Part shown: one piece after another, positions 7,135-58,491 of the stretch
How the letters are laid out: every line of letters begins with the position of its first letter
How positions within the stretch are numbered: position 1 is the first letter of the stretch
From: a virus
Length of the DNA stretch: 64,000 nucleotides
Direction: 5' to 3' (one strand)
IMG/VR virus record: IMGVR_UViG_3300022198_002714
Coordinates: 25,753-89,752 of that record
Translations under genes and position numbers: made by a program
Notes under the pieces: generated by a model
The model's input: only the letters and a program-made list of their open reading frames with translations
What the model was told of the DNA's origin: nothing
Databases searched by the model: none

Positions 7135-8487
7135 TCAATAATAATCGCTACCGTCGAAATCAGGGTCTTTTAATGCGGCCCTGCAATTTTCGCAGAACTT
7201 CCATGCAGGTTCAGCCGATGAGTGAATGCTAAAGATGTGACCGCATTTTTCGCACTCTTTTTGGACGATAGGGTCAATGCCCCCAAGGTAAGGATTCCAA
7301 GATTGCTTCATCAGGCTCCAAGCGTCATTGAACGGTGTGCTACGGGTGAAGGCCTTGCCGTACATGTCATCATCACCGCCCTCGCCGGGGTCACGCATTT
7401 CAGGTATAGAGGTTTGAGATGGCATAACGTCTTCTTCCAAAAGACACTCAAGACATTTTTTTGCGTATTGTAAAGTGTACAAATCATCCTCTTGCTCAAC
7501 GTAAATACCGCTTTTGCAAACCGGACAATGCGCAAAATACTCCTGACCCTGCCAATCGTAAGGTCCGAGAGGGGTTACGTTTCCATCTGCGTCGTAAGAT
7601 TGTTGCCAATCTCGCTTGACAATTCTCCAAGCGTCATTGAACGGTGTGCTACGTGCGAAGGCCTTGCCGTACATGTCATCATCACCGCCCTCACCGGGGT
7701 CACGAATAGGTGGCTTCACGGTGCTACTCAAGCCAATTCTCATGTACTCAAGCACCTTTGCTTGGTCTTCAGGACTGAGTGAAGCCATCTGCGACAGGAA
7801 AGCATCGCTGCCGGTGACGGGGGGTGTCTCAGGCTCAACCTCAACAGGCTTTGGCGCACGTGCAGATGCCGACATGTCCGGCGCGGCAGGCAATTTTTCA
7901 GACAAGTTTCCTTCTTCGTCAAACAATTCCTTTGCCCCTTCAGGCATGGGGAAGCCATACGACTCAGCGTTCTTGGCCTGCGCACTATCCTGCATGGCTT
8001 GCAACTTCTTTGACTGACCTGCCTTGCCTGCGAGGGTTTGCACTTGCTTTGTGCCACTACGCATGGCGTTTTCTCGCTCAGCAGCACGCTGCTGCTTTGG
8101 CGTCATAAATGACTTGTGGTCGTCACCGGGACGATTAAACTCAGCAAAAACGTCCTCAAGGCTCTTACCCTTCATTTCTGCCTGTCTTTCAGGGTCAATG
8201 TCCATAGGGTCATTTACAAACTCAAGGTCGTGCATTTTAGGATTGGCAAGCATCTGCAACATGATGAGTTCACGAAGACGGTCAGCAGCGGGGCCGTAAT
8301 TCGGGTCAGCCTGATTCGTCCAACCCATCTCACGCAACTGAGGATAGGCAATCTTGTTAGCAACACGCGACAAAGGGTGTGGCCCAAGACCTGCCTTCTT
8401 ACCTCCGGTGAGGGGATAGTACACCTTTTGTCGCTGAGGTGTCATTTCACGTCGGGCTTTGACAAGTACGTATGCCATTTTATTCAC
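7135..8487 (-). CDS. Modular protein with two tag repeats, each followed by a Zn-ribbon module
   Basis: RDPGEGGDDDMYGKAF(A/T)RSTPFNDAW occurs twice; CPVC...CLEC and CEKC...CENC modules follow. Confidence 0.75.
   Translation of the reverse strand: MNKMAYVLVKARREMTPQRQKVYYPLTGGKKAGLGPHPLSRVANKIAYPQLREMGWTNQADPNYGPAADRLRELIMLQMLANPKMHDLEFVNDPMDIDPERQAEMKGKSLEDVFAEFNRPGDDHKSFMTPKQQRAAERENAMRSGTKQVQTLAGKAGQSKKLQAMQDSAQAKNAESYGFPMPEGAKELFDEEGNLSEKLPAAPDMSASARAPKPVEVEPETPPVTGSDAFLSQMASLSPEDQAKVLEYMRIGLSSTVKPPIRDPGEGGDDDMYGKAFARSTPFNDAWRIVKRDWQQSYDADGNVTPLGPYDWQGQEYFAHCPVCKSGIYVEQEDDLYTLQYAKKCLECLLEEDVMPSQTSIPEMRDPGEGGDDDMYGKAFTRSTPFNDAWSLMKQSWNPYLGGIDPIVQKECEKCGHIFSIHSSAEPAWKFCENCRAALKDPDFDGSDYY
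7316..7704. repeat. 80-bp direct repeat pair (7316-7395, 7625-7704)
   Basis: ctccaagcgtcattgaacggtgtgctacg...ccggggtcacg twice, 3 mismatches, 309 bp apart (in frame). Confidence 0.9.
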
Positions 8488-8777
8488 AACCTGTTCTTTT
8501 CGTCTCGGTGTCCGAGGTTGTACTCCATAGGACGCTCACACGCACCACAGGTTGCCCGCCACAGGAAGTGGAGGAACCCGCAATGCACGCACCGCGTACC
8601 TGAGCCGATGTTCAGCACATCACCGATATTTGCATTCCGGTTGCGCTGAGCCGCCGTGACGCCCGCGAGGGGGCGGTCGGTGTTGGTGACGACCGCGTTC
8701 TCAAGGTCGTACTTGACGCCCTGCTTGCCTGCGCGAACGAGGTCTTCAAGTTCGATTGAACGTGCATCAAACCCCAT
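8484..8777 (-). CDS. Zn-ribbon protein
   Basis: CVHC...CGAC; start MGFDARS after GAGGTG RBS. Confidence 0.65.
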   Translation of the reverse strand: MGFDARSIELEDLVRAGKQGVKYDLENAVVTNTDRPLAGVTAAQRNRNANIGDVLNIGSGTRCVHCGFLHFLWRATCGACERPMEYNLGHRDEKNRL

Positions 8778-8788
8778 CGTACCCCACC

Positions 8789-8965
8789 TCATGTGAAGGA
8801 CACGACAAGATAGATGTTTCCAAGCACCGTGATTGGTTCTGCGCTAACGATAGAGTTGGCACCGATGGCCGCAGCAACGTCAGTAGCAACCGCTGAGTTC
8901 AACGCCGTAAGGTCGCTGAAGTCCTTGGGCGAGTATGGCCCAATCACCTTCGCTCCTTCCGCCAA
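8789..8965 (-). CDS. Small putative virion protein (58 aa, absent from ORF track)
   Basis: GAGGTGA RBS, TTG start, MAEGAKVIGPYSPKDFSDLTALNSAVATDVAAAIGANSIVSAEPITVLGNIYLVVSFT; fills the gap between neighbours. Confidence 0.6.
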   Translation of the reverse strand: MAEGAKVIGPYSPKDFSDLTALNSAVATDVAAAIGANSIVSAEPITVLGNIYLVVSFT

Positions 8966-8976
8966 GAGGAATCACC

Positions 8977-9318
8977 TCAAGCGCGGCGACCGATGGCGAA
9001 GAAGGTCCCTGCAACGGTTGAGCCGGGAGTAGCGGGGGCAGCGCCACCACCGTCAGGGTCAAGTTCCTTCTGAGCAGGGTACACCGTAATGGTGGTTCCG
9101 CTCACCGTAGCCACGTCGAGAAGGTTCAGGGTACCGGTACCCGTACCATCATCTTGCGTAAAGCCCTGCTCCACCACAGACGCGGGGTTAATTGTGAACG
9201 TGTCAATGCTGCTGAAAAACGCGCTCAGGTTAATGGTCGTTTCACCGGCATCATACGAACCGGTCACAATGAAGCGGTCACCAAAAACGGTCGGTCGGGG
9301 GTCAATAGTTACTGCCAT
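8977..9318 (-). CDS. Putative head decoration/cement protein
   Basis: Small Thr/Gly-rich beta protein downstream of the MCP. Confidence 0.45.
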   Translation of the reverse strand: MAVTIDPRPTVFGDRFIVTGSYDAGETTINLSAFFSSIDTFTINPASVVEQGFTQDDGTGTGTLNLLDVATVSGTTITVYPAQKELDPDGGGAAPATPGSTVAGTFFAIGRRA

Positions 9319-9324
9319 TTATCA

Positions 9325-9666: not shown

Positions 9667-9675
9667 TCAACCACC

Positions 9676-10122: not shown

Positions 10123-10161
10123 TTCATTCACTCCTTGTTTTCAGTTTGTCTCCAATGGACC

Positions 10162-11328
10162 TCACTTCAGGTCACGGATGGAAGCGTGACCACCAAAGAA
10201 AGTGGTCCACAACTCACCCATGGTGCGGTACATGCCTTCCTGACCCAGCCTGTTGATGGCGAAGGGGTCGCCCGTCTCGATGCCGGACTCGAAGTACTGA
10301 GTCGGGATGGCGGTGGAGAAGTACAGGTAGTCCGTGTCGAGGAAGTACATGCGGGACAGGGTGTCCTTTGCAACGTCCTTGGAGGGGATGATGGGAATAC
10401 CGTTGTAGGTCGCCACGATGAAACCGGCCTCGATACCGGGCACACCCTTCACACCGTTGTAGGTGGGGGTGACACGCTTTTCCTCAAGGAACCGCTGCTG
10501 CGACTGCAAGAGTTGCTGCAAGCGCATGAGGGTGTCGTAGCCCGTCAGGATGACCTTGGGGTTGCCACCGCGCTCCCACGTCAGGCGGAAGATTTCATCG
10601 AGGTGGTCGAGGGACAGAACACGGTCCGTACCCTTGGTACCGGAGGTGCTGACTTCGGCGTGGGACCAAGCGTTTGCGTCACGGTTAATCGAGTACATGT
10701 CTTCGTCACCGGCTTCTCCGTAGTCACCGGCTGCCCCACCAAAGTCCATGGTGTTCGCCACGTTACCGGATGCCGTGATAGCACCCGCCGTCACACGGTC
10801 GAGCGACTCAAAGTCGTTCCCGGCAACGGTCGTCACGTCCTCGGTGAGCATCTTGTTGATGTGTTCTGCGTGGTGCTTGCCCATCTCTTCCTTCAGCACG
10901 GCGCGAATGTCACCGAGGCCGTCGTCCTTGTCAGCAAGGAACATCGCCGTCTCCGACATGTCGAAGGTGTGCGCGATGGTCTTGGGCTTCGCAGCAATGT
11001 GTTGGAAGGTCGGCTTGGTGGTGTCGGGGAGAGTCGAGTTCTCCGCGAGGCCACCGCCCTTGGCGAAGGAGGGACGCTCCGTGATGACGCGCCACCCGCT
11101 GCGCTCCCAAGGCCGCTTGGGGAGGATGGAGAAGGCGTTGAACTCTTGGTTGAGTTGGCTCCACACCTTGCGGCCATAGATGGCCTGATAGATACCCGCC
11201 GTGGTGGAGAGCATCGGTGCGTCAGCCTTCAAGAGTTCGCTGCCGGAGTAAGAGTACCCCATGGCGTTTCCTGCGCCATAGAAGTACCGCTCCATGTCGG
11301 TAATTGTCCTGATGTAGTCACGTGCCAT
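10162..11328 (-). CDS. Major capsid protein (HK97 fold)
   Basis: ~388 aa after the protease; GGLAENSTLPDT, KPKTIAHTFDMS, ATYNGIPII, YRTMGELW segments fit HK97-type archaeal virus MCPs; likely start MARDY at 11328. Confidence 0.9.
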   Translation of the reverse strand: MARDYIRTITDMERYFYGAGNAMGYSYSGSELLKADAPMLSTTAGIYQAIYGRKVWSQLNQEFNAFSILPKRPWERSGWRVITERPSFAKGGGLAENSTLPDTTKPTFQHIAAKPKTIAHTFDMSETAMFLADKDDGLGDIRAVLKEEMGKHHAEHINKMLTEDVTTVAGNDFESLDRVTAGAITASGNVANTMDFGGAAGDYGEAGDEDMYSINRDANAWSHAEVSTSGTKGTDRVLSLDHLDEIFRLTWERGGNPKVILTGYDTLMRLQQLLQSQQRFLEEKRVTPTYNGVKGVPGIEAGFIVATYNGIPIIPSKDVAKDTLSRMYFLDTDYLYFSTAIPTQYFESGIETGDPFAINRLGQEGMYRTMGELWTTFFGGHASIRDLK

Positions 11329-11354
11329 TTCATTCACTCCTTTGTTTGATTCCT

Positions 11355-12728
11355 TCACTCACCCCGGACCGCTCGGCCCGCGAGGGTGTGAACTTCGTCC
11401 CACGACATGTTCGCAAGGTCGCCCGTGGTGGGGACCTCGACCTTCGTGGAGGACTTTGCAATGGTGGTGCCAACCGCAACGCTGCCGGTGGACAGGTTGT
11501 CGAGGCGGTCACTCAGCGACTCAATGGACTTGAGAACCTGAGCGAGAGGGGCACGCGGGTCAAAGTTGTCGCGCTCGACCTGAGCCTTGGCAATCTGCAT
11601 CTCCTGAGAGAAGCGGGAAGAGAACTGCTGCTCAAGGTTGCCACGGAAGGCCTGCTCAAGAGCAGCGGCCTTGTACACTTCGTAGGCAGCCTCAATGTCG
11701 GAGTCGGAAGCCGAGGTGACGTAGGACTTGCCGAGTTGGACAGGTCCAAGGGCACCGGAGGGTTCTCGACCGCCGCCGGAGGTGAGGGCGGAGATGGCAC
11801 CCGTGGAGGGGCTACCCTTCTCCTGACCGCGACCGCGAACCTGACCGGCAAAGTAGTCGGCACCGTCCACGGAGTCGGGGTTGTCAAAACCGCCCATCTG
11901 AGCCTTCGACATTTGGTCGAAGTGCAGTCGGGCCGCGTGGGTGTCAACACCCGCGCTCTTCAGCGTGTCTTCCATCCATGAGAGGTATTCAGCGGTGATA
12001 ACGTCGCTGTATTCTCCCTTTTCCATATCTTCAGGCATGTCTTCGTCCTCCTTGTTGTCTTTTTGGGACTCTTTTTCTTCGGAGTCCTTGGACTCCTTCT
12101 TTCCTTCCTTCATGCTCTCACGGAGAGCAGGAGGAAGTTCGCCCTTTTCCATCGCATCGAGGCGGGCTTCAAGTCGGCTCATAATGTCGGTCAAATCGTT
12201 GTCTGCACTCATAGTGGTGTCCTCCTTTAAGATGCTGAACTGCGCTTCAGGGTTAATCCCCTTCTCGCAAATCGTAATCTCATGGAGTTCCATTTTGGAG
12301 ATTTCCTGATAATCTCCGTGGATTGAGTCAGACTTGCGAACACGCTTGAACGCCTGACCCCCAATAGAGAAGCCACGCAAGTTGCCCTTGCGGATTTCCG
12401 CAGCAACCTCACGGGCCTTCTCAATGTCGTTGCGGAGTTGCACAACGACGAACATGCCGGTGTCGTCACACTCAGACTTCCACATGCGACCGTTGGAGTC
12501 CACGTAGGAGTCAATGACTTCACCGACTTGAATGTTGGAGTGAGCGAGTTGCACGTTGCGGTACTTGTCGCTCTTCATAAAACCATCAAAGGCATCCTTG
12601 AGGGCACTCCGCGTAATGAGGTCGCCCTGCTTATCCACCAATTCGACGGAAGCATAGCCCGCAACCACAAGGTCAGACCCGCTCTTCAGGAGCGAGAGTC
12701 CGACTTCAGGTCGCTGAACCGTAAGCAT
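11355..12728 (-). CDS. Prohead (capsid maturation) protease fused to scaffold
   Basis: VVAGYASVELVDKQGD, LAHSNIQVG, LRGFSIGG, LHEITICEKGINPEA match HK97/XkdF-type prohead proteases; acidic helical C-terminal scaffold. Confidence 0.9.
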   Translation of the reverse strand: MLTVQRPEVGLSLLKSGSDLVVAGYASVELVDKQGDLITRSALKDAFDGFMKSDKYRNVQLAHSNIQVGEVIDSYVDSNGRMWKSECDDTGMFVVVQLRNDIEKAREVAAEIRKGNLRGFSIGGQAFKRVRKSDSIHGDYQEISKMELHEITICEKGINPEAQFSILKEDTTMSADNDLTDIMSRLEARLDAMEKGELPPALRESMKEGKKESKDSEEKESQKDNKEDEDMPEDMEKGEYSDVITAEYLSWMEDTLKSAGVDTHAARLHFDQMSKAQMGGFDNPDSVDGADYFAGQVRGRGQEKGSPSTGAISALTSGGGREPSGALGPVQLGKSYVTSASDSDIEAAYEVYKAAALEQAFRGNLEQQFSSRFSQEMQIAKAQVERDNFDPRAPLAQVLKSIESLSDRLDNLSTGSVAVGTTIAKSSTKVEVPTTGDLANMSWDEVHTLAGRAVRGE

Positions 12729-19968: not shown

Positions 19969-21741
19969 TTAGGCACCGCGAGGCCTTCGGGCGTTCATCA
20001 GCGCATTGCTGACGTTTTCTTGTAGGTTAGGCTGCGGACCCCGTTGTTGAACGCTACTAAACGGTGCGCCGCTACCAACCACGGTCCTTCGCTCAGGCGC
20101 AGCAGGCCCTCGATTACGCAGACCAACACCTTGACCACCGGGTTGAGGTGGCGGCATTGGCATGCCCGGAGGCATTCCACCAACCATTTGCGGTGGCATA
20201 CCCGGAGGCATACCCGGAGGCATACCCGGAGGCATACCCGGAGGCATACCCGGAGGCATACCCGGAGGCATGCCCGGAGGTGCGCCACCCGGAGGCATAC
20301 CCGGCATGCCTTGTTGTGGCTGCGGTTGTGGCTTGCGGTACACAAAGCGAATGTCGCGGTTAGAGGGGTCCTCAAGCAGTTCCGGTTGGAAGCCCAACTG
20401 AGCCATGCGTTGAGCGACGTTGAGTTCTTGTTCGTCACGACGGAGACGGGTAATTTCGTCTTCTTCCTCGTTGGGGTACAAGGTGAGTTTCCAATCGTTG
20501 ACGTTCATCTGTTTAAGCAGACGAGGAAACAGAACATCTGTGTACACCTTTTGACCGTACTCAACTGCACGGTTGGTGACAAGAATCTGCATACCTTCAT
20601 TGTTCAGTCCACCGGACTTGCCGGTGTCCACCATGAAGATGCTTGAAACGCCATAGAATGCGGCAATTCTGTTGCGAATCTCGTCACGGACCGGAATGTA
20701 TTGCATTTCCTCCAAGGTGTCCATGAACTTGACCCAATTCACGCCACCCTTGCCGGTTTGCGATTCAATACCAACACGGGGAATGTAGTGGGGGTCACGC
20801 TCCATCTTCTCGTCAACGGACTTCCAAAATGACTTCATGGACTCAAGATTGTCCGTAGTCACCGAGATGATACCCTTGGGCATCCGTCGCTTTTGATAGG
20901 CCGTGTACATGTAATTGTCCATAGCCGTGAGCGTCATGGCTTGACGCCACATGGTGTTGACGGGACTGCGACCGTACAACTTTGACGGAGTGTACTTGCT
21001 GACGTGAATTACTTCACCTTCAACGAAGTACTGCGTCTTTCCGCTACCGGCCATGTTGACGTAGTGAACGTCTTCAAGGTCACGACCACAGTTCTCGCAC
21101 ACCTTGTCGTCAGCATGCGTCTTCACTTCGTCACGATGGATGATGCAGACTTTGAATCGGCCACCGCGCACACCACGTTTGTCGGCCACAATCCGCATGA
21201 AGATGGGGTCACCGCGAACCATCTCCTTGACACGATAAAACGCAATCTCCTTGCTTTCAGGGTCAATGAAGTATTCTTTGACCAAGATGAGGAAAGCGTC
21301 ATCCACGATATTGAGGTCATTCTCAACTTCATGAAGCAGATGGACAAAAGATTGTTCCATCGAGTTTTCCTGTTTGAGCAACCATTTTGGGTACGTCAAC
21401 TCATCAGGGTCAGGCTTGCGCACTTCGCCACCGCATTGCTTGCAGGATTCCATTTCCTGTTGGTATTCTTCATCGCACACCGTACATTTGACTGTGAACT
21501 TCTTTTCCCAATAGTAGCCGCGACGAAACATCTCCTGACGCAACTTGGAAAGAACGGTGCGCAAAATTAGCGACTCGTTGCTGACTGCATAAAGCGCAGG
21601 GATGGTGATGCCCTGAGCCATTACGGGTTCCTGAATGCCGCTTGACCACAACGGCATGGTCGGCGTAGGAGACTCACGCGACTTGAACGGGCTACGAAGG
21701 CCTGACAGGAACCGAGAAATGCGTCCTTCTTCTGCCATCAT
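19969..21741 (-). CDS. Portal protein
   Basis: [25 protein letters not shown] portal motifs; follows terminase; carries CxxC insertions and a Pro/Gly/Met tail. Confidence 0.9.
20195..20280. repeat. 12-bp tandem repeat (GGCATACCCGGA x~7) encoding PPGM
   Basis: Directly visible; in-frame in the portal C-terminus. Confidence 0.95.
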
Positions 21742-23089: not shown

Positions 23090-24577
23090 TCAGGGGGTAA
23101 GCCATCCATCAAAGCCTCCTTTTTCTTCCTGATTACCACCACTAAGCCAATCGGCAAATCCGGGCATGTAGTCGTCAAGCATAACAAGCGAGCCACGGAA
23201 CTCCTTGGTACCCCAATTCGCCAAAGCAAGGGCCATTGCCAAGTCGTCGTGCGTACCCACGCTTTCCAACTTCCCGTTTTTCTGCATGCCGAAACGGTTG
23301 AGTTCTTGCTCCAACTTGTGCGTGAACTCACGGCTCCGCTCATCCCCATAGGGTGTGCGAATCTGACCTTGCTCAAACGCCATGAGCAAGGACATGAACA
23401 TGGATTCCTTACGCTGACGGGTGGTCATGAACGTCTTGATGGGAATGTCGTTGCGCATGTCTTGCAGTTCAGCAGCAAACATGCGTTGGAAGTTGTTTCC
23501 TTCAAGTTCAATCAAATCAGGTTGGAAGCGGTTGTTCATCATCAGGATTTGCCGTTTCTGCGCAGCACCGCTCATTCCACGTTCGTGATGCGCACCAATG
23601 ATTTGTTTGGTACCGTCATCGGGTAACGTACGTAACACAAGCATAGCGGTAAAGTCAGCGTTCTTGTCCGAGGCAATAGCCGTGTCCCATCCGATGAAAT
23701 GCTGACCAAAGATGCCTGTTGATTCACCTTCTTCGTCGTATTCCATTTCAGCGCGGTCAAGCAACACAAGTTCCTTGTCCCTTGCTTTTTCAAGAATGTC
23801 GTTGGGAAACATACTCGCAACGTCGTGAATCGGCTCGCACAGGTATTCACGGGAGAATTGAATAGCAGGCATGGAAAGTCGCCGTTGGTCAAGCGATTCC
23901 AAATCCCATCGCTCAGGCCACAGGGCTTTTCCTTCGTTGTTGATGGCAGGGTAGGTTTCAACGGTGAATGCCTCACGTTGCTCAAGTTCTGCGTACAGGT
24001 CGTTGTACGAAAAAGGTGTACCAACAATCATCATGCGACCGGAGTGGTGCAGCACAGGAAGCAGCACACCATAGAACCAATCAGCAGCACGTTGCAATTC
24101 AGTACCGGTCGTACCCCACAGAATGTCGTCGCACACAACCACGTTCGGGTGGAAACCACGGGTACCACCACCCACGGACTTTGCCATCATACGGCTTCCG
24201 TTTGCAAAGTCAAAGTAGGTTTTTCGCCACGGTCGCCCTTCGGGAATAAGGTGTTTCAGACACGGGGTGGTTTCGATGTTGTTGCGAATGAACCGCATGT
24301 GTTCAAGCGTCTGCTCAAGTGAGTGGCTGAAAATCATGATGTGAGTGTTGGGTTGAAACGCCGCAATCCACAGGGCATAGGACATGAAAAACACGGACTT
24401 GCCGTGGTCACGGCTTGCTTTGACACAGTAGTAGCGGTTGTCACTCAACCCTTTGTCCCAACATTCGTGATGGAACGAATAGTCATAGCCAAGAATCTCG
24501 GTGAAGAAGTACCTGAAGGACTTGGCCGACATTTCACGGTCCATCTCAAGGATGAACTGATTCATGTCTTCCTTCAT
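23090..24577 (-). CDS. terL: Terminase large subunit
   Basis: Walker A ASRDHGKS, Walker B VVVCDD, coupling motif VGTP, nuclease GWDTA and HDDLAMALALA. Confidence 0.95.
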   Translation of the reverse strand: MKEDMNQFILEMDREMSAKSFRYFFTEILGYDYSFHHECWDKGLSDNRYYCVKASRDHGKSVFFMSYALWIAAFQPNTHIMIFSHSLEQTLEHMRFIRNNIETTPCLKHLIPEGRPWRKTYFDFANGSRMMAKSVGGGTRGFHPNVVVCDDILWGTTGTELQRAADWFYGVLLPVLHHSGRMMIVGTPFSYNDLYAELEQREAFTVETYPAINNEGKALWPERWDLESLDQRRLSMPAIQFSREYLCEPIHDVASMFPNDILEKARDKELVLLDRAEMEYDEEGESTGIFGQHFIGWDTAIASDKNADFTAMLVLRTLPDDGTKQIIGAHHERGMSGAAQKRQILMMNNRFQPDLIELEGNNFQRMFAAELQDMRNDIPIKTFMTTRQRKESMFMSLLMAFEQGQIRTPYGDERSREFTHKLEQELNRFGMQKNGKLESVGTHDDLAMALALANWGTKEFRGSLVMLDDYMPGFADWLSGGNQEEKGGFDGWLTP

Positions 24578-25326
24578 CGGCTCAACCTCTTGAGCAAGTA
24601 GTCCATCGCATGTTCAAACGGCTCAGCAGAACGATTGAATCGTTGGTCGTACAGGTTGGTTTGTCCTTGGAGTAATCGCGCTGCTTCAGCGGGGTCAACA
24701 GGTGTTCCCTGCTGCTGAGCAGGCTGAGCAGGCTGAGCAGCAGCAGGCTGAGCAGGAGGTTGTCCCGGCATCGTCGGCAAAACCCCCGCTGCATGTGCAG
24801 GGTCAACAGGTGAAGCGGTAGGTGCAGCGGTAGGTGTAGCGGTAGGTGTAGCGGTTTGAGATGGACCCATACCCGGTAGCATCATTTGGTCCGGTCGGAG
24901 TGGGGAACCATCAGGAGCAGTCGCACCCGGTGCAACAGGCTCCATGTGTGGGGGTTGCTGCTGAGTAGGTGAAGATTGAGTTTGAGGTTGAGTTTGAGGT
25001 TGAGTTTCCTTTTGCCTTTCAATGAACTGCCACGGTTGGTTTGCAAGGTACTGTGCGTACGCACCCATAGGAGCAGCGAGGTTGCCCCCTTGCATTTGGT
25101 CTGCAATTTGTTGCGTGGTAGCCGCAGCAGAAAGACCGCGACCTGCCAAATCAGCAATAGCACCAAGTCTTTGCCATCCTTGCCCTTTCTGACCTGTTTT
25201 TCGTCCAAAGGCCACGCCCGCAAGTTCACGAATTGATGGGCCTTTACCACCAACCACCAACTGCAAACCGCCACTTGGTATCTGCTGCAACGCAGTTTCA
25301 GATTTACGAACGAGTACGGGCTTCAT
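24574..25326 (-). CDS. Gln/Pro/Ala low-complexity protein with C-terminal tag
   Basis: QPQT, TPTA and AQP repeats; ends AEPFEHAMDYLLKRLSR. Confidence 0.7.
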   Translation of the reverse strand: MKPVLVRKSETALQQIPSGGLQLVVGGKGPSIRELAGVAFGRKTGQKGQGWQRLGAIADLAGRGLSAAATTQQIADQMQGGNLAAPMGAYAQYLANQPWQFIERQKETQPQTQPQTQSSPTQQQPPHMEPVAPGATAPDGSPLRPDQMMLPGMGPSQTATPTATPTAAPTASPVDPAHAAGVLPTMPGQPPAQPAAAQPAQPAQQQGTPVDPAEAARLLQGQTNLYDQRFNRSAEPFEHAMDYLLKRLSR

Positions 25327-25330: not shown

Positions 25331-27475
25331 TCACCTCATACTTATTTTAATGACCTTGACGACCTCGGGTTGGACGTTGTACGACTTCGCAATTTTGTGC
25401 CAATCACCCATCGTGTGATGAATGTTGGTTACTTCCTCGGAGGTAAGCCCAACGTATGAAGCCAACTGACGGGAGGACGTGCGGGAAGAACTGAGGTGTT
25501 TCACCACGTTGTTGTCCAATTCAGCCTCGCGGTACTGCATTCGCTCAAGTGCTTTCATCACTTGGTCCATCACAGGCAGATGTATGTCTTCGCTGCGCAT
25601 GAACTGCGACAACAAAGTTTGGCGTGGGTCAGACAGGCCTGCTTGGGCGCGTGCTTCAACGGGAGACAACTCAGGCGAAGCAGCAGGCCGCTGCCGACCA
25701 CGACCTGCGAGGTCGAGCATTTCCCTGAACTGTGCAGGGGTATAGCGGCCAATGTCCGGTCGAATGGCTTGGAAATCAGCCGACAAGGGTTGAGGTGTCC
25801 CTGCGTCTGCGAGCGGCGGAGGTGATGAGCCGCTTGTTGGGAGAGGCACCGTAGCCGACGGATGAGCGGACGCCGGTACGGGTGCAGACGCAGGGACTTC
25901 TTGTGGTAGGTCACCGGGGTTGTAGTCAGCAAAGTCTTCAACCCACGCATAATCGTAATTTTCCATATGTGGCTCAAGCCTAAGTTGTGGCTCAAGCATA
26001 TCACCGTGATAATTCTGAATGTGCATAGGTCGGCCAAGCGGCTTGTTTGGTACCTCACCTACGTCTTTTCGCTCATGACCGCGAGCCACCATTTGATGTT
26101 CAGCAAGCCCTTCAATTAAACGACGATTGAGATTAACTTGCTCTTGTTCATCAGGAGCAATACTTTCTAATTGAACGTCACGCAATTTGGAACTGCCGTC
26201 TTCGTTAGCGCCAAACATGTTTGCAAGAGCCATGACACGTCCTGCCTTAGCATGCATACCTGTCCCTTTACCGCTCCCTCCCGCCGTGTAGTACTCGCTA
26301 TGCTCGTCATGAGAAAGGCCTGAATAATCTTCAAGCCTTCCCATTACGTTGTTGAACAATTTCATGAAATTGCCTCCTTGTTGGTTTGCTCGACCAAACA
26401 AAAACATCATTGCAGGCACCGATGAAATCTCCTTAATGACCGCTTGCTGATATTCAGGAGTGAGCAGGGCTTCTTGCAACGGTCGTTGGATTCTTTGTCC
26501 TTCAAACGTAAAGGTCACAGGAAAATTAGGTATGGCGTCAACATTGCCTCCACTTAGGGCTTGTCGAATATGGTCTGCCGTCCTTCTTTGCAAATCAATG
26601 GCTTCCCTGTTTTGGGGCATTGGTTTGAAAAACACATCAGGAAGATGATGCAGCACTTGCCACGTAAATGCTTCTTGTTGTTCTGCGGGTCTGAACTCAT
26701 CAGGAAACGGAACTTTTGACCCATCAATATACGCGGAGCCGGGGTCACGTTGTTCGGAGCGAATGTACTTCGGGGGTGTGGTGTAGTTCGCATATACAAA
26801 CGGTTTGTCATGCAACAAAAATCTGACATTATGCGCAAGCATGTCAATTACTTCAGGTGAAAAATGCTGCTCAAGCAGTTGTCGCAATTCGACGTTGAAG
26901 GGTAAGTAGTACGATTCAATGAACTTCCCATTTGGGTTTTCAGCGGCGTTGTTGTTTGTCAGCAACGTAATCTTGGTGCCGTCTTGCGAACGAGTTGGTC
27001 GAGTTGTCTTGTCAGGATGCATTTCCACCTGTTTTGGTAGGGGTGCAGAACGCAACTTTCGCCATTGAAGGCTCTCAAACGGTGCCAAATGGTGTTTTTC
27101 GTTTGGGTGCTTTTGGTTGAACAAGTCAATTGCTTGATTGAAAAGATTGACAACATCAGGAGATGAAATAGAAGGAACATGCCCTTGCAATGCACGAAGC
27201 AAGCGGTATGCAGCCGCATCAATACCGTGTTGGAAAAATCGAGGGCCGTTTGGGTGGTCCCTTTCACGGGTGTGGTAGTAGTAAATGCCGCCATCGTCTT
27301 TGGCCCATTCTCCATCATACACGTTGCCTGCACCATCGTGGGCAAAGGCAGGTAAGTCCAAGTTTCCCATTGGCTTGAAGGCCGCAGGTGGAGGGTTTCG
27401 CATGACGAACCTACCGTTAGGTCCTGAGTGAATCAGACCCCACGCCTTCTGAATGATGAACGAATTGTACATCAT
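25331..27475 (-). CDS. Large hypothetical protein (candidate internal virion protein)
   Basis: 714 aa, coupled; Pro-rich linker and HTH-like C-terminus. Confidence 0.7.
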   Translation of the reverse strand: MMYNSFIIQKAWGLIHSGPNGRFVMRNPPPAAFKPMGNLDLPAFAHDGAGNVYDGEWAKDDGGIYYYHTRERDHPNGPRFFQHGIDAAAYRLLRALQGHVPSISSPDVVNLFNQAIDLFNQKHPNEKHHLAPFESLQWRKLRSAPLPKQVEMHPDKTTRPTRSQDGTKITLLTNNNAAENPNGKFIESYYLPFNVELRQLLEQHFSPEVIDMLAHNVRFLLHDKPFVYANYTTPPKYIRSEQRDPGSAYIDGSKVPFPDEFRPAEQQEAFTWQVLHHLPDVFFKPMPQNREAIDLQRRTADHIRQALSGGNVDAIPNFPVTFTFEGQRIQRPLQEALLTPEYQQAVIKEISSVPAMMFLFGRANQQGGNFMKLFNNVMGRLEDYSGLSHDEHSEYYTAGGSGKGTGMHAKAGRVMALANMFGANEDGSSKLRDVQLESIAPDEQEQVNLNRRLIEGLAEHQMVARGHERKDVGEVPNKPLGRPMHIQNYHGDMLEPQLRLEPHMENYDYAWVEDFADYNPGDLPQEVPASAPVPASAHPSATVPLPTSGSSPPPLADAGTPQPLSADFQAIRPDIGRYTPAQFREMLDLAGRGRQRPAASPELSPVEARAQAGLSDPRQTLLSQFMRSEDIHLPVMDQVMKALERMQYREAELDNNVVKHLSSSRTSSRQLASYVGLTSEEVTNIHHTMGDWHKIAKSYNVQPEVVKVIKISMR

Positions 27476-29475
27476 CCCATATGCCCCCGTTGTGAGACAA
27501 GATAGCCCGCCGGGTCAAGACCAAACTGCTTAGCGTCTGTCTCGTCGTTTTCTGTCGGTCCTTCAGGGTCCGACTCATTTTTGGGACTTACACCGGCAGG
27601 ATGAGCAGGAACGTGACCGTTCTCCATTGCGCTTTGTGTACCTGCTTTTTCCAACTTATTTACTCGCTCCAATGCAGCCATGATGCGGCGCATAATGTTG
27701 AGTCGCTCAGTTGTGCGAGCGGCTCGACCCTTGAGCATCTCACTCTCGGTACGCTCTTCACTCATCATAATGGACGAGGGAGCAGATGGAGCAGATGGAG
27801 CAGATGGGATGCCGGGGACCATGGACGATTGCGGTGAAGGCATCATTGGCGGCATGGGTGGCATCGGTGGGCGTGGCATACGGGGCATACGGGGTTGATG
27901 GACTCTCAATGGACGAAGTGCGGGTTGCCTCATTTGTCCTGCTTGACCGGGCAAGAGTCCGCTGAGTCTTCCTGCTCCGGTGGGTCCGGCATAACTGCCT
28001 CGCTCGGCGTAGCGGGCGTGGGGTGAGAAAGTTGTGCGTACATTGCCGAGAATCTTGCGAGCCTCAGATTGGCCCATGTACTGACGGTACTTTTGCGGGT
28101 CTTTCGACATGGGTTGTTTCGTCGCAATGCCACGGTGACTCATCTCCACAGATAGGTGAGGTAACATCAACCCCGTTTTCTTTCCACCCTTGATACCACG
28201 CATGCGAGCGCGGAAGCGCCGCATGGTAGCACCGCTTGGGTCCATGCCGCCGGGTGGCCGCTTAAATTGTCCTGTGGAGGGACGAAACTCGCGCCGCGCT
28301 TCACGACGGCGACGGGCTTCGATGGTACCGGGTGTTTCACGTTTCAACAACGCAGACCAAGCATCTTCCATTGGTTCAGCACGGTTGAGGTCTTGCCATC
28401 CATAGCCAAACATAGGATTTTTGTTTTCCATGATGCGAGTGTTTGCCTCGTCAAAATACGGTTCACGCTCTTCTGCTGAAAGATTGTCAAAGTCAGGATG
28501 CATCATTATGTCAGCGAGTGCTTGGTGGCTAAGGTTCATGTGCGGTCGTTCTGCCAAACCTTCCATCATCATGCTTTGACGCAGTTTTTCTTGTTGCCGC
28601 TCATGAGCAATAGCATCGTCTTCTTTCAGCAACGTGGACCAAGCATCTTTCATTGGTTCACTTGCCAATTTTTTCCATTGAGAAGGGTGTACCGCATGCG
28701 CTCTTGTTACGTCACGGGCCATGTGGTCAGTTCTTGGCGTTGTTCTCCCTAAATCAAAATCAATTCCACCGGGCATTTCCAATTGACTGTCTTGCCATGC
28801 GTCAAACATCATCTCCCAAATTGAATTGTCAATGTCTTCTTGACTCAATTCAGGAAAATCGCCGTACATTCGTTGCATACCTCTTTGCATGAATGGATTA
28901 CCTTGAAGCCTTAGCCACTCAATTTTTTCATCATTGGACATACCTTCAATGTAATCCCACAAAGAATTGGTGACGCCCATCAAATGCTCATCTGCTTCAT
29001 CATTCCAAATCTGCTCATCAGGATGAATGTAGTCTTCGTCTTCTTTCAGCAACGTGGACCAAGCATCTTTCATTGGCTCGCTCATAAAGAGCGGTACAGG
29101 ACCGGTCATTGCGCTACCGGTACCTGTCTTGGCCCCCGTAGCCATGTCAAGCATATGACCGCGACTGCCCGCAGGACCGCCCTGCAATCCGAGTTCTCGC
29201 TCTAAGTCCTGCTTGTTGCCGTCGTCCTCACCCATTGGTGACTCGGCACCGTCAAGAGGCAACTTTGCGCTGACCTTGATGTGCTTGATTTTGCTGCGCT
29301 TTTCTTTGCGCTCTTGTTCACGCTGCTTCCGCTCTTCGCGGCGGCGTTCCATGTCTTCCGGGGACGTGGGCGAGTACTTGTCCTCGTCCTCGTTAGCCGA
29401 CGAGTACATCTTGTCGGACTCGCTACGCGGCGAGTACATACGAGTGTCCGAGCCGCGTCCCATCATCGGCATCAC
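27472..29475 (-). CDS. Modular protein with three tag repeats
   Basis: SEPMKDAWSTLLKED twice and AEPMEDAWSALLKR; acidic and basic modules between them. Confidence 0.75.
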   Translation of the reverse strand: MMPMMGRGSDTRMYSPRSESDKMYSSANEDEDKYSPTSPEDMERRREERKQREQERKEKRSKIKHIKVSAKLPLDGAESPMGEDDGNKQDLERELGLQGGPAGSRGHMLDMATGAKTGTGSAMTGPVPLFMSEPMKDAWSTLLKEDEDYIHPDEQIWNDEADEHLMGVTNSLWDYIEGMSNDEKIEWLRLQGNPFMQRGMQRMYGDFPELSQEDIDNSIWEMMFDAWQDSQLEMPGGIDFDLGRTTPRTDHMARDVTRAHAVHPSQWKKLASEPMKDAWSTLLKEDDAIAHERQQEKLRQSMMMEGLAERPHMNLSHQALADIMMHPDFDNLSAEEREPYFDEANTRIMENKNPMFGYGWQDLNRAEPMEDAWSALLKRETPGTIEARRRREARREFRPSTGQFKRPPGGMDPSGATMRRFRARMRGIKGGKKTGLMLPHLSVEMSHRGIATKQPMSKDPQKYRQYMGQSEARKILGNVRTTFSPHARYAERGSYAGPTGAGRLSGLLPGQAGQMRQPALRPLRVHQPRMPRMPRPPMPPMPPMMPSPQSSMVPGIPSAPSAPSAPSSIMMSEERTESEMLKGRAARTTERLNIMRRIMAALERVNKLEKAGTQSAMENGHVPAHPAGVSPKNESDPEGPTENDETDAKQFGLDPAGYLVSQRGHMG
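28616..29076. repeat. 41-bp exact direct repeat (28616-28656, 29036-29076); diverged third copy ~28342-28377
   Basis: tcgtcttctttcagcaacgtggaccaagcatctttcattgg twice, 420 bp apart. Confidence 0.9.
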
Positions 29476-35438: not shown

Positions 35439-35439
35439 A

Positions 35440-38622: not shown

Positions 38623-39294
38623 TCAGTTACCCCATAAGCGTTGCAAATACGCAATACGGTCATCACCGTCGGGGATTTTGATTTGCCCATCGTTTGAAAA
38701 TATGGTTTGTCGGTAATCGGGGTTAGTCTCAGGTTCCTGAAGAAGAGTATTTTTGGGAATAGATTCAACTTGATTTGTTGACTGTTCTTGTTGTATTGGC
38801 AACGCAATACGATGCGGGCCGCGTAAATCGCCCCATTTCAGTTCGGTACGATTAGGCATGTACGTTACTACATCAGACGGTAGCAACTCTTCCCTATCCG
38901 GTTTTTGCACAGTAACATCGCGTATGTTTTGACTCAAGTTTTGATGGAAAGGATTGGAGTTTTGGTTTCGCGCATCGCTTCTTATTCCATATCCATGATG
39001 AATCAGATTTTCAAGCAAGGCTCGGTAGTGTCCTTGTCTGCGTTGGCGAAGCGGAGTTCCCGCTTCACCAATTTGGTTGAGTTCATCACGTCTCAGTCTT
39101 TCAGGAAATGTGACGCTTGATAGGTGTTGTCCATCTTGACCAATCAATCTTGCTATGGTTTTTTGGTCATTCAATTCAATGTGTGAAGGAATAATTCGCT
39201 TTCTATGGAAGGAGTAAGGTAAAGGTGCATCCATAAAGTCCGACAATTTTTTTTGCCTTTTCAGCAAGAGCCAAGACTGCTCAAAAGGACTCAT
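38623..39294 (-). CDS. N-terminally tagged protein, possible GNAT acetyltransferase
   Basis: Start MSPFEQSWLLLKR after GGTGA; TPLRQRRQGHYRALL resembles the acetyl-CoA-binding motif A. Confidence 0.55.
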   Translation of the reverse strand: MSPFEQSWLLLKRQKKLSDFMDAPLPYSFHRKRIIPSHIELNDQKTIARLIGQDGQHLSSVTFPERLRRDELNQIGEAGTPLRQRRQGHYRALLENLIHHGYGIRSDARNQNSNPFHQNLSQNIRDVTVQKPDREELLPSDVVTYMPNRTELKWGDLRGPHRIALPIQQEQSTNQVESIPKNTLLQEPETNPDYRQTIFSNDGQIKIPDGDDRIAYLQRLWGN

Positions 39295-39301
39295 ACAAAC
39301 A

Positions 39302-52490: not shown

Positions 52491-52510
52491 AAGAGAATGA
52501 AGGTGAGAGA

Positions 52511-56172: not shown

Positions 56173-56176
56173 TTGA

Positions 56177-56697: not shown

Positions 56698-57131
56698 ACA
56701 CAGAACAATTTGAAGGACACACGCCCGGACCTTGGACGACGAACGACATTGAAGGGCGAGAGATTTGGAAGTGCCTCTTCAATGGGGAGTGTTTCACCGA
56801 CCCCTCCACTTACGGCAGACCGGGCTACGAAGAAGTGCTGATTGCTACGATGGCACCATTACCGCCGGAGGATGACCCCCTCGCAGAAGCAGCGTTCGAG
56901 AGGATGATGGCAGACAAAGAACTGATGGCCGCCGCACCTGACCTGCTCGCTGCATACAAGCGCCTGCTCAAATGCACTATTGATGCTCGCTATGTTTTGA
57001 TGAAGCACTATGGATGGATGAGCATGAACGATTGTACATCAACGGAAGACGACGAAGAGATTGTCGCGGTTGTTCGTGCGATTGAAGAGGCATTGTATGG
57101 TGAGGCTTCGTTTGAAGGTGAAGAAGAATGA
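56694..57131 (+). CDS. 'HTPGPW...MAAAPDLL' family paralog 2
   Basis: 46-bp near-identical 5' end shared with the 55813 gene. Confidence 0.7.
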   Translation: MNTEQFEGHTPGPWTTNDIEGREIWKCLFNGECFTDPSTYGRPGYEEVLIATMAPLPPEDDPLAEAAFERMMADKELMAAAPDLLAAYKRLLKCTIDARYVLMKHYGWMSMNDCTSTEDDEEIVAVVRAIEEALYGEASFEGEEE

Positions 57132-57427
57132 ACAAAGAAGAAGTGACGATTGAACGCATCGCTGAAATGAGGCTTGCTTACATCAAGCACTTGGAGAAGC
57201 AGGTTGCTGACCTGAAGGCACAGGTGGAGAACCTGCTTGAGTTCGGTGAGTACTTCTTGTGCCGTGAGTGTGAACTGCATTCACCGATAGACAAGCCTTG
57301 CGAGTGTTGCCCCCATTGTGGGGAGCATCCGGGCGAGCCTGACCTTGACCGCCTGTGCGGTGAGTGTGGGCGTGAACTCAACGACGCGATTGCCATGCGC
57401 GACGAGATTGCATATGGGAGGCTTTGA
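57128..57427 (+). CDS. Coiled-coil plus Zn-finger protein
   Basis: CREC, CPHC, CGEC. Confidence 0.65.
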   Translation: MNKEEVTIERIAEMRLAYIKHLEKQVADLKAQVENLLEFGEYFLCRECELHSPIDKPCECCPHCGEHPGEPDLDRLCGECGRELNDAIAMRDEIAYGRL

Positions 57428-57541
57428 TATGAGATTCACTATGCGGAACTGCGCGAGGCGCAACTGTAACAACTTCACACTACCGGGCTTCCGGCTTTGC
57501 ATGAGGCCCGACTGTGGAAACAAACAGGGGGAAGAAGAAGA

Positions 57542-57832
57542 ATGAAAGAAACGAATAAGGGAGACGAAGTGTACAGGATTGACTACGCCAAACCAACGTC
57601 GCGGTACAAGCAACGTGGTGCGGTACAGACGGAGTTCTATGATATTCCGACACGCGACGGCAAGACGGTGCGAGCGCAGCGGCTTGTCCCTGTGCGACGT
57701 GTGCCGTTGAAGGAGCGGGCAGCGCAACACAAGGCAAATCACCCGAAGGACGTAGGGGAGAAGGACGTGCGTGAGCGGAAGATGGCTTCTATCAGTCACG
57801 TTAAAATCCCAACGTACCGTGTGGAGGAATGA
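57542..57832 (+). CDS. Small basic hypothetical protein
   Basis: MKETNKGDEVYRIDYAK; coupled to the kinase gene. Confidence 0.6.
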   Translation: MKETNKGDEVYRIDYAKPTSRYKQRGAVQTEFYDIPTRDGKTVRAQRLVPVRRVPLKERAAQHKANHPKDVGEKDVRERKMASISHVKIPTYRVEE

Positions 57833-58491
57833 TGACGCCGTTTGAGGCTGCGTGGGCTGAGATTCAGTCGCGGCAACCGAGAGGGCAATTCTTGGGTGGC
57901 TCCACCGGAGCGAGGGGGTTCGACTTGGACCCCGGACGATTCGTTGGCAAGCGAGGAAACCATCCCCGTCACGTTTTGAATGAGTTTGATATGAACCGTT
58001 ACCTCTCCATGATGGGTGTCGGTGTACCAAACGCAGCCCTATTCCATGATGATGCAGGACCGATGATGCTGACGCAGTTCCAACAAGGACGACACGTCAA
58101 CCCACGGACGGACAGGCAGAAGGTGGCTGATGATATGCTCGCTCATGCGCTGATTGGTAATTGGGACGTGACGGGGATGGCAAACGACAACGCGCTCATG
58201 CTACCGAGCGGGCAAGTGTCCTACGTGGACGTGGGTGGCTCCGGTCCGTGGCGAGCGCAAGGCGCACCCAAGGGCGACCAATGGGGGCAGTACGTCAACG
58301 AAACGGAAACGCTGCGAAGGCGCAACCCGTGGTACGCAGACGTGAGCGATGAAGACATACAACAACAGTACAACCGCATGGGCGGGCAGTACGGACTACT
58401 CACGGGGCTGAACCAAGTGGATTGGAACGACCCCAACACAAGGGACATGATGCAACGACGAATCATGTCCCTGCAACCGTGGCTTGGTTGA
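57829..58491 (+). CDS. PI3/PI4-kinase/HipA-like kinase domain protein with N-terminal tag-like sequence
   Basis: LGGSTGA (P-loop), VGK, NE...GVGVP, ALIGNWDVTG..DN, YVDVGGS..RAQG; begins MMTPFEAAW. Confidence 0.7.
   Translation: MMTPFEAAWAEIQSRQPRGQFLGGSTGARGFDLDPGRFVGKRGNHPRHVLNEFDMNRYLSMMGVGVPNAALFHDDAGPMMLTQFQQGRHVNPRTDRQKVADDMLAHALIGNWDVTGMANDNALMLPSGQVSYVDVGGSGPWRAQGAPKGDQWGQYVNETETLRRRNPWYADVSDEDIQQQYNRMGGQYGLLTGLNQVDWNDPNTRDMMQRRIMSLQPWLG

Follow-up and report, generated by a model that had tools for sequence, protein, structure and literature searches.

[quoted passage not shown] In IPII and IPIII the CTS is cleaved off by the prohead protease gp21. Its likeness to the role proposed here for the tag lies in a peptide of about 10 residues that is enough to direct non-essential proteins, otherwise unrelated, into the core of the head, in the presence of Alt in the core, and in the subsequent processing and injection of the cargo (PMC9958956). 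The CTS is N-terminal only; the magrovirus tag is found at C-termini and between modules as well, on many more families of protein, and its virus infects archaea and has an S78-type protease. The CTS is cut after Glu, and we know of no sequence likeness between it and the tag. In phage P1, the Dar anti-restriction protein DarB is packaged via its first 30 residues (PMC9024508). Here too a short terminal signal brings a large accessory protein, or a reporter, into the capsid (PMC9024508), and the cargo acts against host defence (PMC9024508; PMC12810830). The DarB signal, however, is N-terminal, belongs to a single protein that is loaded stepwise with DarA and Hdf, and is not a shared motif.

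Two non-viral systems and one class of phage and conjugative-element proteins are also comparable. Encapsulin cargo-loading peptides are short and conserved, sit on flexible linkers and dock varied cargo inside an HK97-fold shell from either terminus; they share these features with the tag as read here but have a Gly/Ser/Leu-rich, extended consensus and serve cellular nanocompartments with neither a protease step nor DNA. The encapsulation peptides of bacterial microcompartments and repeat-bearing scaffolds such as CsoS2 use amphipathic linker helices at termini, or repeated motifs in disordered chains, to bring cargo into a protein shell, but the shell proteins are unrelated and non-viral and the sequences show no likeness. 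Phages and conjugative elements also encode polyvalent proteins (Iyer et al. 2017), which are reportedly built of several modules, have their genes in or close to head modules, and are said to combine ART and other conflict enzymes with Zn-ribbons and to travel with the DNA. To our knowledge, their modules have not been described as parted by one shared short helical tag. They differ from the present case in that the giant portal-adjacent protein, the classical place of packaged polyvalent proteins, carries no tag here, which tells against head loading, and in that for the majority of tagged modules no known domain could be assigned.

Tag copies and the ORFs that carry them

The window, a stretch of 64,000 nucleotides, is part of an 89.7-kb genome (IMG/VR record IMGVR_UViG_3300022198_002714, positions 25,753 to 89,752). 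The virus is magrovirus-like, judging from its capsid protein and the genes of its relatives, and the PolB and chaperonin encoded by relatives support this assignment. The host side is archaeal, and the virus is abundant in the ocean. The capsid protein is 35% identical to those of the haloviruses HVTV-1 and HCTV and has more than 590 relatives in IMG/VR. In the prohead protease, the S78 domain is fused to a long acidic, coiled scaffold-like tail. None of the RNA runs checked for the region contains it.

Table 1. Tagged ORFs and head genes in the window (positions in the window).
Feature	Position	Strand	Tag or Pfam match
ORF X, 450 aa	7135..8487	-	PFNDAWRIVK 7615-7644; PFNDAWSLMK 7306-7335
Major capsid protein (HK97-type, SU10_MCP)	10162..11358	-	2.8e-11
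Prohead serine protease, S78 domain aa 41-170	11355..12728	-	Peptidase_S78 5.8e-09
Portal protein	19969..21741	-	Phage_portal 6.3e-10
Terminase large subunit	23090..24577	-	Terminase_6C 5.8e-14; Terminase_6N 3.6e-06
Gln/Pro/Ala-rich ORF, 250 aa	24574..25326	-	C-terminal PFEHAMDYLLK 24589-24621, 4 aa before stop
ORF, 667 aa	27472..29475	-	Internal PMKDAWSTLLK 29044-29076 and 28624-28656; PMEDAWSALLK 28342-28374
ORF, 521 aa	33906..35471	-	Internal PMDLAFRLLK 34476-34505; PMDIAMRLLK 34158-34187
ORF, 441 aa	35440..36765	-	N-terminal PMESAWRLLK 36727-36756, then RQTTL; 16.9 bits
ORF, 315 aa	36767..37714	-	Internal PMDLAWDFLLMLK 37463-37501; 19.5 bits
Same ORF, second tag	36779-36808	-	C-terminal PMDLAWRMLK, 3 aa before stop; 27.8 bits
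ORF, ~223 aa from internal ATG	38623..39294	-	N-terminal MSPFEQSWLLLK, tag 39259-39288; 18.9 bits
ORF, 160 aa	39302..39784	-	N-terminal (M)TPFEQAWSLLK 39749-39778; 19.3 bits
ORF, 364 aa	39781..40875	-	Weak N-terminal PFQQAYALVRK 40837-40869; 1.5 bits
Same ORF, second tag	40477-40506	-	Internal PFADAWSLLK; 13.0 bits
ORF, 220 aa	57829..58491	+	Doubtful N-terminal MMTPFEAAWAEIQ 57838-57867, no LLK; 10.5 bits

All 16 tag copies listed in the original prediction translate exactly as given, at the right coordinates, 15 of them on the minus strand and one on the plus strand. The ten ORFs had been called unrelated, and with the tags masked no pair of them reaches BLASTP E<0.1. The shuffle test proposed at that time was run over a crude gene set of the whole genome: a tight pattern was observed 14 times, while 2000 rounds of shuffling within proteins gave 0.0105 occurrences on average and never more than 1; a looser pattern was observed 17 times against 0.22 expected. 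A profile with fixed spacing, built from 148 copies in relatives, gave 17 matches at 9-28 bits on the 89.7-kb genome, the next best reaching 4.2 bits. Three of the listed copies are weak: PFEAAWAEIQ scores 10.5 bits and has no LLK; PFEHAMDYLLK (2.3 bits) and PFQQAYALVRK meet the pattern but not the fixed-spacing profile. Just beyond the window there are three further copies (genome positions 4636, 6729 and 8685). Recent duplication accounts for part of the copies that share an ORF (a 102-nt repeat with 88% identity in ORF X; a 47-nt repeat with 96% and 74% identity in ORF 27472..29475), so that about 13 copies are independent. The copy in ORF 57829..58491 is the sole plus-strand copy in the genome; the presence of one tag copy in an opposite-strand module runs counter to head loading.

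The core pattern given earlier was recovered, but the length stated for it was too short, since the real consensus extends further. Internal copies follow phi-x-[TRKA]-[GS]-E-P-M-D-[IL]-A-[WMFY]-[RQ]-L-L-K and N-terminal copies M-x-P-[MF]-D-x-A-W-x-L-L-K, the Pro being mostly residue 3 (residue 4 in two of the five N-terminal copies of the window); both can be summarised as P-M/F-D-x-A-W-x-L-L-K, a peptide of 10-11 residues. The [GS]-E kept before Pro in internal copies could mark a cut site other than one after Lys, or none. The predicted placement, with five N-terminal, two C-terminal and otherwise internal copies, is right if the frame 38623-39501 begins at its internal ATG (MSPFEQSW); the longer frame, with a TTG start, overlaps the upstream gene.

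Conservation and distribution of the tag

Comparison with relatives revealed 199 unique copies: 127 internal, 55 N-terminal and 17 C-terminal. Across 172 copies, the residues P, A, L, L, R and K are each encoded by all of their synonymous codons, and between ORFs the tag-coding DNA is about 70-74% identical over 30 nt. The codons thus vary freely, so selection acts at the peptide level. The 374 modules attached to tags fall into 156 BLAST clusters, that is, at least 156 unrelated module families, and 92 representative tagged ORFs gave almost no Pfam matches. There is a structural-strand bias: in four genomes, 46 of 48 tags lie on the structural-gene strand. Several tagged genes overlap neighbours in the structural operon, and together with the strand bias this links the tag to late/structural genes. 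Against head loading, the majority of the tagged genes are situated upstream of the terminase, a region that in many tailed viruses is not strictly structural.

Polyproteins carry 5-6 tags, 100-300 aa apart, on disordered charged linkers. AlphaFold models place the tags as lone amphipathic helices within flexible low-pLDDT linkers (helices 279-291 and 383-393 in ORF X), and the flanks are depleted in order-promoting residues (0.23-0.24 vs 0.32) and often strongly acidic. With a hydrophobic moment of 0.64, the predicted helices agree with the amphipathic helix originally proposed.

Individual families show how the tag is retained while its surroundings change. ORF X lies in the head module, flanked by head-completion and tail genes, and has a Zn-ribbon module after each of its two tags. 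Across its 35 orthologues the conserved parts are only an N-domain of about 95 aa and the tag (D282, A283, W284, K288); past the tag Lys the reading frame ends within 0-3 aa or runs on into a Zn-ribbon add-on, of which there are several different kinds. The tag is the conserved element within otherwise fast-evolving proteins. In ORF 27472..29475 three tags divide an N-module, two acidic inserts and an Arg-rich C-module; among 26 homologous ORFs in relatives, the shortest (427-428 aa) have a single tag between N- and C-modules. The last module of ORF 33906..35471 ('ERVSPEA...') was found again in 28 ORFs of relatives and belongs to a family whose members stand first, in the middle or last. ORF 24574..25326, whose 3' end overlaps the terminase start, has a positional counterpart in relative G017 with an N-terminal tag MKPIDSAWAILK and a C-terminal tag SEPMDLAFRMLK; the genes at this position in G042 and G033 show no clear tag. 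A Pfam search with ORF 35440..36765 gave no match. Overall, our analysis supports a discrete portable peptide, selected as protein, at N-terminal, C-terminal and internal sites.

A search of IMG/VR with the DNA pattern of the tag matched 96 stretches, and the same capsid gene was present in 32 of 47 tested tag-carrying records, including all nine near-complete ones. No tag was found in halovirus HVTV-1, and 596 Gb of cellular genomes, archaea among them, gave matches at chance level only, with the exception of one bacterial-MAG contig bearing a true tag in its usual context. These results support the specificity of the tag to this virus lineage. No published description of the tag was found in the literature.

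Possible functions of the tag

We tentatively read the tag as a recognition helix for one virus-encoded partner, probably in the procapsid interior, that loads cargo into the head. The tag would act as a self-contained amphipathic helix of 10-11 residues with a Pro cap at its start and Lys at its end, and the partner would most likely be the protease with its scaffold-like tail, the lining of capsid protein, or the portal. The major capsid protein is a candidate docking surface, and the protease both a candidate cutter and a candidate docking partner. During head assembly, tagged accessory proteins and multi-module polyproteins would be taken in, and the S78 prohead protease may then cleave behind the tag Lys, freeing the modules. 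We infer loading into the head, the partner, cleavage and its position, and host injection.

None of the canonical head proteins examined is tagged and no partner was identified; two conserved neighbours, of 714 aa and 435 aa, offered no lead. This counts against head loading and would suit docking to a non-capsid hub (a virus-factory or condensate scaffold, viral chaperonin, packaging motor or host factor), a somewhat doubtful alternative to which many tags on disordered chains could contribute as 'stickers'; the lineage does encode a chaperonin, and the gene immediately upstream of the terminase has terminal tags in two genomes. That tag, however, is not universal, and both the structural-strand bias and retention of the tag in the head-module family X speak against such a hub. 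Since the tag is absent from the cellular genomes searched, archaeal included, no host motif appears to be copied in this form. It is quite unlikely that the tag is a polyprotein-processing signal only, a site for the prohead or another protease with no addressing role. Internal copies do lie exactly at module borders, with [GS]-E before Pro and an invariant end Lys, and HK97-type proteases cut after Lys. The lineage conserves three phi-phi-K sites of the protease (aa 15, 168 and 400), and the phi-phi-K Lys of capsid protein and protease aligns with Lys in the HVTV-1 counterparts, which is compatible with cutting after Lys as far as alignment can tell. Yet 72 of the 199 unique copies stand at the very start or the very end of their protein, where a cut would remove just 0-4 or about 12 residues; a mere cut site makes no sense there, and a position-independent label is indicated instead. 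Family X also retains the tag with nothing behind it. The earlier argument from 'LLK' in the capsid protein, protease and giant protein proved weak: the tag profile gives such sites -2.5 and -3.3 bits, by sequence those of capsid protein and protease are not tag-like, and [LIVM][LIVM]K tripeptides occur about 1.1 times per 400 residues of the proteome.

The hydrophobic moment, interfacial Trp and terminal Lys would also fit a membrane-binding helix that places proteins on the host membrane, but this is very improbable: the conservation of particular residues at fixed positions (P, M/F, D, A, W, L, L, K) goes far beyond lipid-binding needs, the helix has only about three turns and includes an acidic residue, its flanks are often acidic, and no transmembrane or lipid-related context was seen. 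Conservation at the DNA level, with the tag-coding sequence as a recombination joint for cassette swapping, is scarcely credible. Near-identical tag-coding repeats flank inserted modules in two ORFs, a stand-alone N-tagged ORF of this genome recurs in L132 as the final module of a 600-aa ORF, and module clusters change position between first, middle and last. Synonymous codon freedom nevertheless largely refutes such a joint, as does the limited identity between ORFs; homology-driven shuffling, maybe a side effect, cannot account for peptide conservation.

Tagged modules and the proposed head-loading reading

Loading into the head, our preferred reading, would give the carried modules a common route: enzymes of the ART-like and HD kinds, Zn-ribbons, and segments that are very acidic or rich in Arg. 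In relatives, tagged module families include ADP-ribosyltransferase-like and HD enzymes, and the module most often found with a tag resembles PARP16, Tpt1 and exotoxin A (profile E=0.002, fold probability up to 0.97). Taken as a whole, the data give good support to a portable recognition peptide. By analogy, some tagged modules in relatives (ART-like, HD) look like enzymes that phages inject, and modules freed in the head would exit with the DNA at infection.

Occurrence and composition of the tag

All 16 peptides described in the original prediction were found to translate as given there, in ten window ORFs that proved to be unrelated (best pairwise E = 0.12 with the tags masked). The enrichment was also borne out: across the whole genome the tight tag pattern occurs 14 times, where 2000 within-protein shuffles gave a mean of 0.0105, and a looser pattern occurs 17 times against 0.22 expected. 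A tag profile built from 148 copies from relatives gave 17 matches at 9-28 bits on the 89.7-kb genome and, as the next best match reached only 4.2 bits, the signal is cleanly apart from noise. Three additional copies lie directly outside the window. All 16 window copies are present, but three of them (PFEAAWAEIQ, PFQQAYALVRK and PFEHAMDYLLK) are weak by profile. In two ORFs the copies arose by recent duplication, as repeats of 102 nt (88% identity) in one and of 47 nt (96% and 74%) in the other.

The core reads P-[MF]-D-x-A-W-x-L-L-K, and the motif is longer than had been stated, with conserved residues before the proline. Internal copies follow the consensus phi-x-[TRKA]-[GS]-E-P-M-D-[IL]-A-[WMFY]-[RQ]-L-L-K. 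N-terminal copies follow M-x-P-[MF]-D-x-A-W-x-L-L-K, where proline is mostly the third residue (the fourth in two of the five window copies) and is preceded mostly by Thr, Asn or Ser. C-terminal copies stop 2-4 residues past the lysine, and no residue preference was found at the position after it. The 199 unique copies divide into 127 internal, 55 N-terminal and 17 C-terminal ones, and some ORFs longer than 1000 aa carry five or six tags at a spacing of 100-300 aa.

The predicted amphipathic helix is in agreement with a hydrophobic moment of 0.64 and with AlphaFold models, in which the tags are predicted as isolated helices. On this helix M/F1, A4, W5 and L8 form a hydrophobic stripe and D2, R6 and K9 the polar side. 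In the model of the 450-aa window protein (family X) the tag helices span residues 279-291 and 383-393, with flanks below pLDDT 50; a small N-tagged protein has a helix at residues 3-13, followed by a low-confidence linker. Tag flanks are poor in order-promoting residues (0.23-0.24 vs 0.32 in untagged genes). As is expected of a SLiM/MoRF, the tag is a conserved island within disordered and variable flanks, according to the family X alignment, AlphaFold and flank composition, and it occurs at any position (N-terminal, C-terminal or internal) in unrelated proteins, with 156 module clusters.

The claim that the LLK of the capsid protein, the protease and the giant portal-adjacent protein is tag-like failed, since these sites score negatively with the profile and the tripeptide occurs often. 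In none of four genomes does the giant protein start with a tag. The tag is absent from the capsid protein, portal, protease, terminase, tail proteins and both giant proteins (1958 and 5520 aa).

Virus lineage and genomic context

The window is the final 64 kb of an 89.7-kb IMG/VR record with an estimated completeness of 83%. Between position 1 and about 41 kb the genes, structural ones included, are on the minus strand. The capsid protein shares 31-35% identity with its counterparts in the haloarchaeal siphoviruses HVTV-1, HCTV-1 and HCTV-5, and no closer match was found among GenBank phages. More than 590 capsid-protein relatives occur in IMG/VR, the best 80 loci of these being 77-97% identical, and genes for PolB and a chaperonin are present in complete relatives (107-110 kb). 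Capsid likeness, PolB and chaperonin fit the published description of magroviruses, the viruses of marine group II archaea (PMC5434244), and the window virus is therefore regarded as magrovirus-like. No PolB was found anywhere in this 83% complete record; the PolB ORFs of relatives (779-803 aa) are similar in size to an 802-aa ORF of the window that has no Pfam match.

Features of the window and its surroundings (window positions unless marked as genome)
Feature	Position	Strand
Terminase large subunit	23090-24577	-
Portal	19969-21741	-
1958-aa protein	portal-adjacent	-
S78 prohead protease with long scaffold-like tail	11355-12728	-
Capsid protein, HK97-type (SU10_MCP 2.8e-11)	10162-11358	-
Tail-tube-like protein	structural block	-
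SNF2 helicase, DUF932, HTH proteins and others	from ~43.5 kb onward	+
Family X protein, 450 aa, tagged	7135-8487	-
Pre-terminase gene, tagged	24574-25326	-
667-aa gene, tagged	27472-29475	-
HMGL-like gene	37740-38585	-
802-aa ORF	48798-51206	+
404-aa open frame	10135-11349	+
5520-aa ORF	genome 8688-25250	-
56-aa basic ORF, tagged	genome 8521-8688	-

The tag is characteristic of this virus lineage. In IMG/VR, 96 stretches match a degenerate DNA pattern for P-M-D-x-A-W-x-L-L-K, and 32 of the 47 searchable tag-bearing records contain a capsid gene closely related to that of the window virus, the remaining 15 being fragments. All nine tag-bearing records with at least 90% completeness are among the 32. 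The four fully read genomes gave 17, 17, 9 and 5 profile matches; HVTV-1 has no tag copy even with the loose pattern.

In these four genomes 46 of 48 tags are on the structural-gene strand, which carries 62-75% of coding residues (binomial p <=1.4e-4, with copies that are non-independent). The conserved 667-aa tagged gene, a 714-aa gene and the pre-terminase tagged gene overlap one another in the structural operon. The neighbouring 714-aa and 435-aa proteins have no Pfam matches, and the Atlas gave nothing useful for the former. No RNA runs containing the region were listed. DNA nearly identical to it recurs at estuary or lagoon sites. At the position expected for the small terminase subunit, this virus and G017, G042 and G033 (related virus records) encode a 250-400-aa Gln/Ala/Gly/Pro-rich low-complexity protein with no recognisable TerS; terminal tags are present on it in two of these four viruses. 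Identification of this gene as the small terminase was rejected because the protein is of low complexity and terminal tags are not universal.

Some other features of the genome were also recorded. The 5520-aa ORF ends 502 bases short of the window start, downstream of the tail-tube and neighbouring genes and roughly at the expected tape-measure position; its counterparts in relatives are 5526-5980 aa. Its N-terminus ('HALFFDGVSD') is lectin/LamG-like by eye, and it carries no tags. The HMGL-like gene (pyruvate carboxyltransferase family, Pfam 1e-21) lies amid the tagged-gene block, and three complete relatives have conserved it at 40-46% identity. Auxiliary metabolic genes were not reported in the 2017 magrovirus paper (PMC5434244). 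The 404-aa open frame runs antisense over the entire capsid gene and was taken in its place by crude longest-ORF calling, a trap for automatic annotation. Otherwise full-length capsid-gene matches in many related records (G012, G013, G015, G017, G021, G023, G030, G035, G040-G044, G046 and G047) have one or two in-frame TGA/TAA stops, which may reflect match edges, or frameshifts, insertions or recoding.

Tagged modules and family X

When 232 tagged ORFs of relatives were split at their tags, 374 modules in 156 BLAST clusters were obtained. Pfam analysis of 92 representative tagged ORFs gave almost no matches, the few being HD_4, GNAT, DUF6321 and DUF5872, and the tagged ORFs of the window gave none. 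The commonest module in relatives (25 members) starts with 'RQTTLGEFHPDLPSPYG..YHGT' and, judged by profile and structure searches, weakly resembles ADP-ribosyltransferases (ARTs) such as PARP, Tpt1 and exotoxin A. A profile of seven of its sequences matched PARP16 at E = 0.002, with further matches nearly all ARTs; Pfam PARP was matched at 1.5e-4, under its cut-off, and ART-PolyVal at E=0.12. Its Foldseek list was almost purely Tpt1, PARP and exotoxin A (probability <=0.97, E ~0.03). Small N-tagged HD hydrolases are also present in relatives. A 56-aa very basic ORF outside the window (MTPMDESWAVLK..KVYPSAYANGWAV..), which has an N-terminal tag, is conserved in 13 related ORFs and may belong to DUF5872 or DUF6321.

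Modules change places at the tags: one N-tagged ORF that stands alone in this genome recurs in the related stretch L132 as the final module of a 600-aa ORF, and several module clusters were seen as first, middle or last module. For most tagged ORFs of the window, some 780 kb of related DNA contain nothing homologous beyond the tag, so these ORFs evolve fast.

The family X gene lies within the head module, some 2 kb downstream of the capsid gene. Across 35 distinct orthologues conservation is limited to the tag and an N-domain of about 95 aa, for which Foldseek found no fold matches; the linker between the two is variable. In this family K288 is invariant, D282, A283 and W284 are nearly invariant, proline is replaceable and the glutamic acid before it is absent. 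Past the lysine the protein either stops within 0-3 residues or continues into one of several different Zn-ribbon add-ons. The tag is therefore a self-contained unit that is conserved in its own right, with the lysine as the border where variable passengers attach.

Proposed role of the tag

Selection for a DNA-level element was rejected: among 172 distinct copies the full set of synonymous codons occurs at Pro, Ala, each of the two Leu, Arg and Lys, and tag-coding DNA is only about 70-74% identical between window ORFs, indicating that the peptide and not the DNA is under selection. Mimicry of a host motif was rejected because the DNA pattern used for IMG/VR was matched just 13 times across 596 Gb of cellular genomes, where roughly 17 matches would arise by chance (a hand estimate from pattern information content); none of the 13 is archaeal and all but two are in tiny non-coding frames. 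One of them, on a 16-kb contig labelled Parvibaculum sp. MAG (L204, NZQM01000026.1), is a genuine tag set in the conserved 'MIQMSE-PMDIAWQLLK' context, and this contig of a bacterial MAG is probably a magrovirus contig mis-binned into that MAG. Tat signal, PIP/APIM, MIM and LIR motifs were discounted by eye, as their spacing or required flanks did not match. A pure cut site leaves the terminal copies unexplained and the sequence is too specific for general membrane binding; the tag is thus very probably a shared docking peptide for one partner.

That this partner is part of the procapsid is a serious possibility, which we place slightly short of even; the argument is drawn from the gene neighbourhood, from the family in the head module and from analogy with T4 and P1. 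In T4, IPII and IPIII are sent to the scaffolding core by an N-terminal sequence of about 10 aa, and the ART Alt is found in the same core (PMC9958956); in P1, DarB is packaged via its first 30 residues (PMC9024508). The T4 capsid targeting sequence is strictly N-terminal, whereas the magrovirus tag is N-terminal in only 55 of 199 copies. Encapsulin shells share the HK97 fold with the magrovirus capsid protein. Encapsulin loading peptides have a Gly/Ser/Leu-rich consensus, unlike the tag, which is predicted to be helical. Polyvalent proteins, phage-packaged multi-domain proteins that contain conflict enzymes such as ARTs, are tied to MuF/portal head proteins; in contrast, neither a MuF nor a portal domain was found in any of the 92 representative tagged ORFs, and the portal-adjacent 1958-aa protein is untagged.

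Cleavage after the tag lysine, as read from sequence, is a tentative proposal. It would fit the invariance of the lysine, the start of add-ons directly after it and the alignment of another lysine, at candidate sites in the capsid protein and protease, between magrovirus and HVTV-1. The candidate capsid-protein site is SGSELLK|AD in the magrovirus vs SGG-MSK|AD in HVTV-1. These candidate capsid-protein and protease sites do not resemble the tag, and internal copies keep [GS]-E before the proline.

Taken jointly, one position-independent peptide code would plug any protein module into the capsid throughout the lineage, so that a new module would need only a tag alongside it (at least 156 module families so far, the ART-like one included), and the head protease would cut after the tag lysine, freeing the modules as an injected effector cocktail. 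We regard this combination of loading code, cleavage and injection as rather unlikely in its entirety. A bolder variant would have the invariant lysine hold cargo covalently on the capsid lining.

The motif strings were found in no paper in a literature search, which also found no literature linking Poseidoniales viruses with polyproteins. The 2017 magrovirus paper nowhere mentions 'motif' (PMC5434244), and a term search of a recent paper on Poseidoniales viruses (PMC11706807) gave nothing relevant. Magroviruses rank with the most abundant viruses of archaea in the surface ocean, and the majority of their genes have no assigned function. The shared tag groups dozens of such genes per genome into a single functional class, for which the 10-residue profile is a simple search handle. 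Should it prove to be a capsid address label, the tag would, to our knowledge, be the first code of its kind described in an archaeal virus, and broader than the T4 and P1 signals, working at either protein end or between modules. It would also offer a natural route for putting foreign proteins into an HK97-type capsid, and it would suggest that these viruses direct a large, fast-evolving set of injected effectors at their Poseidoniales hosts.
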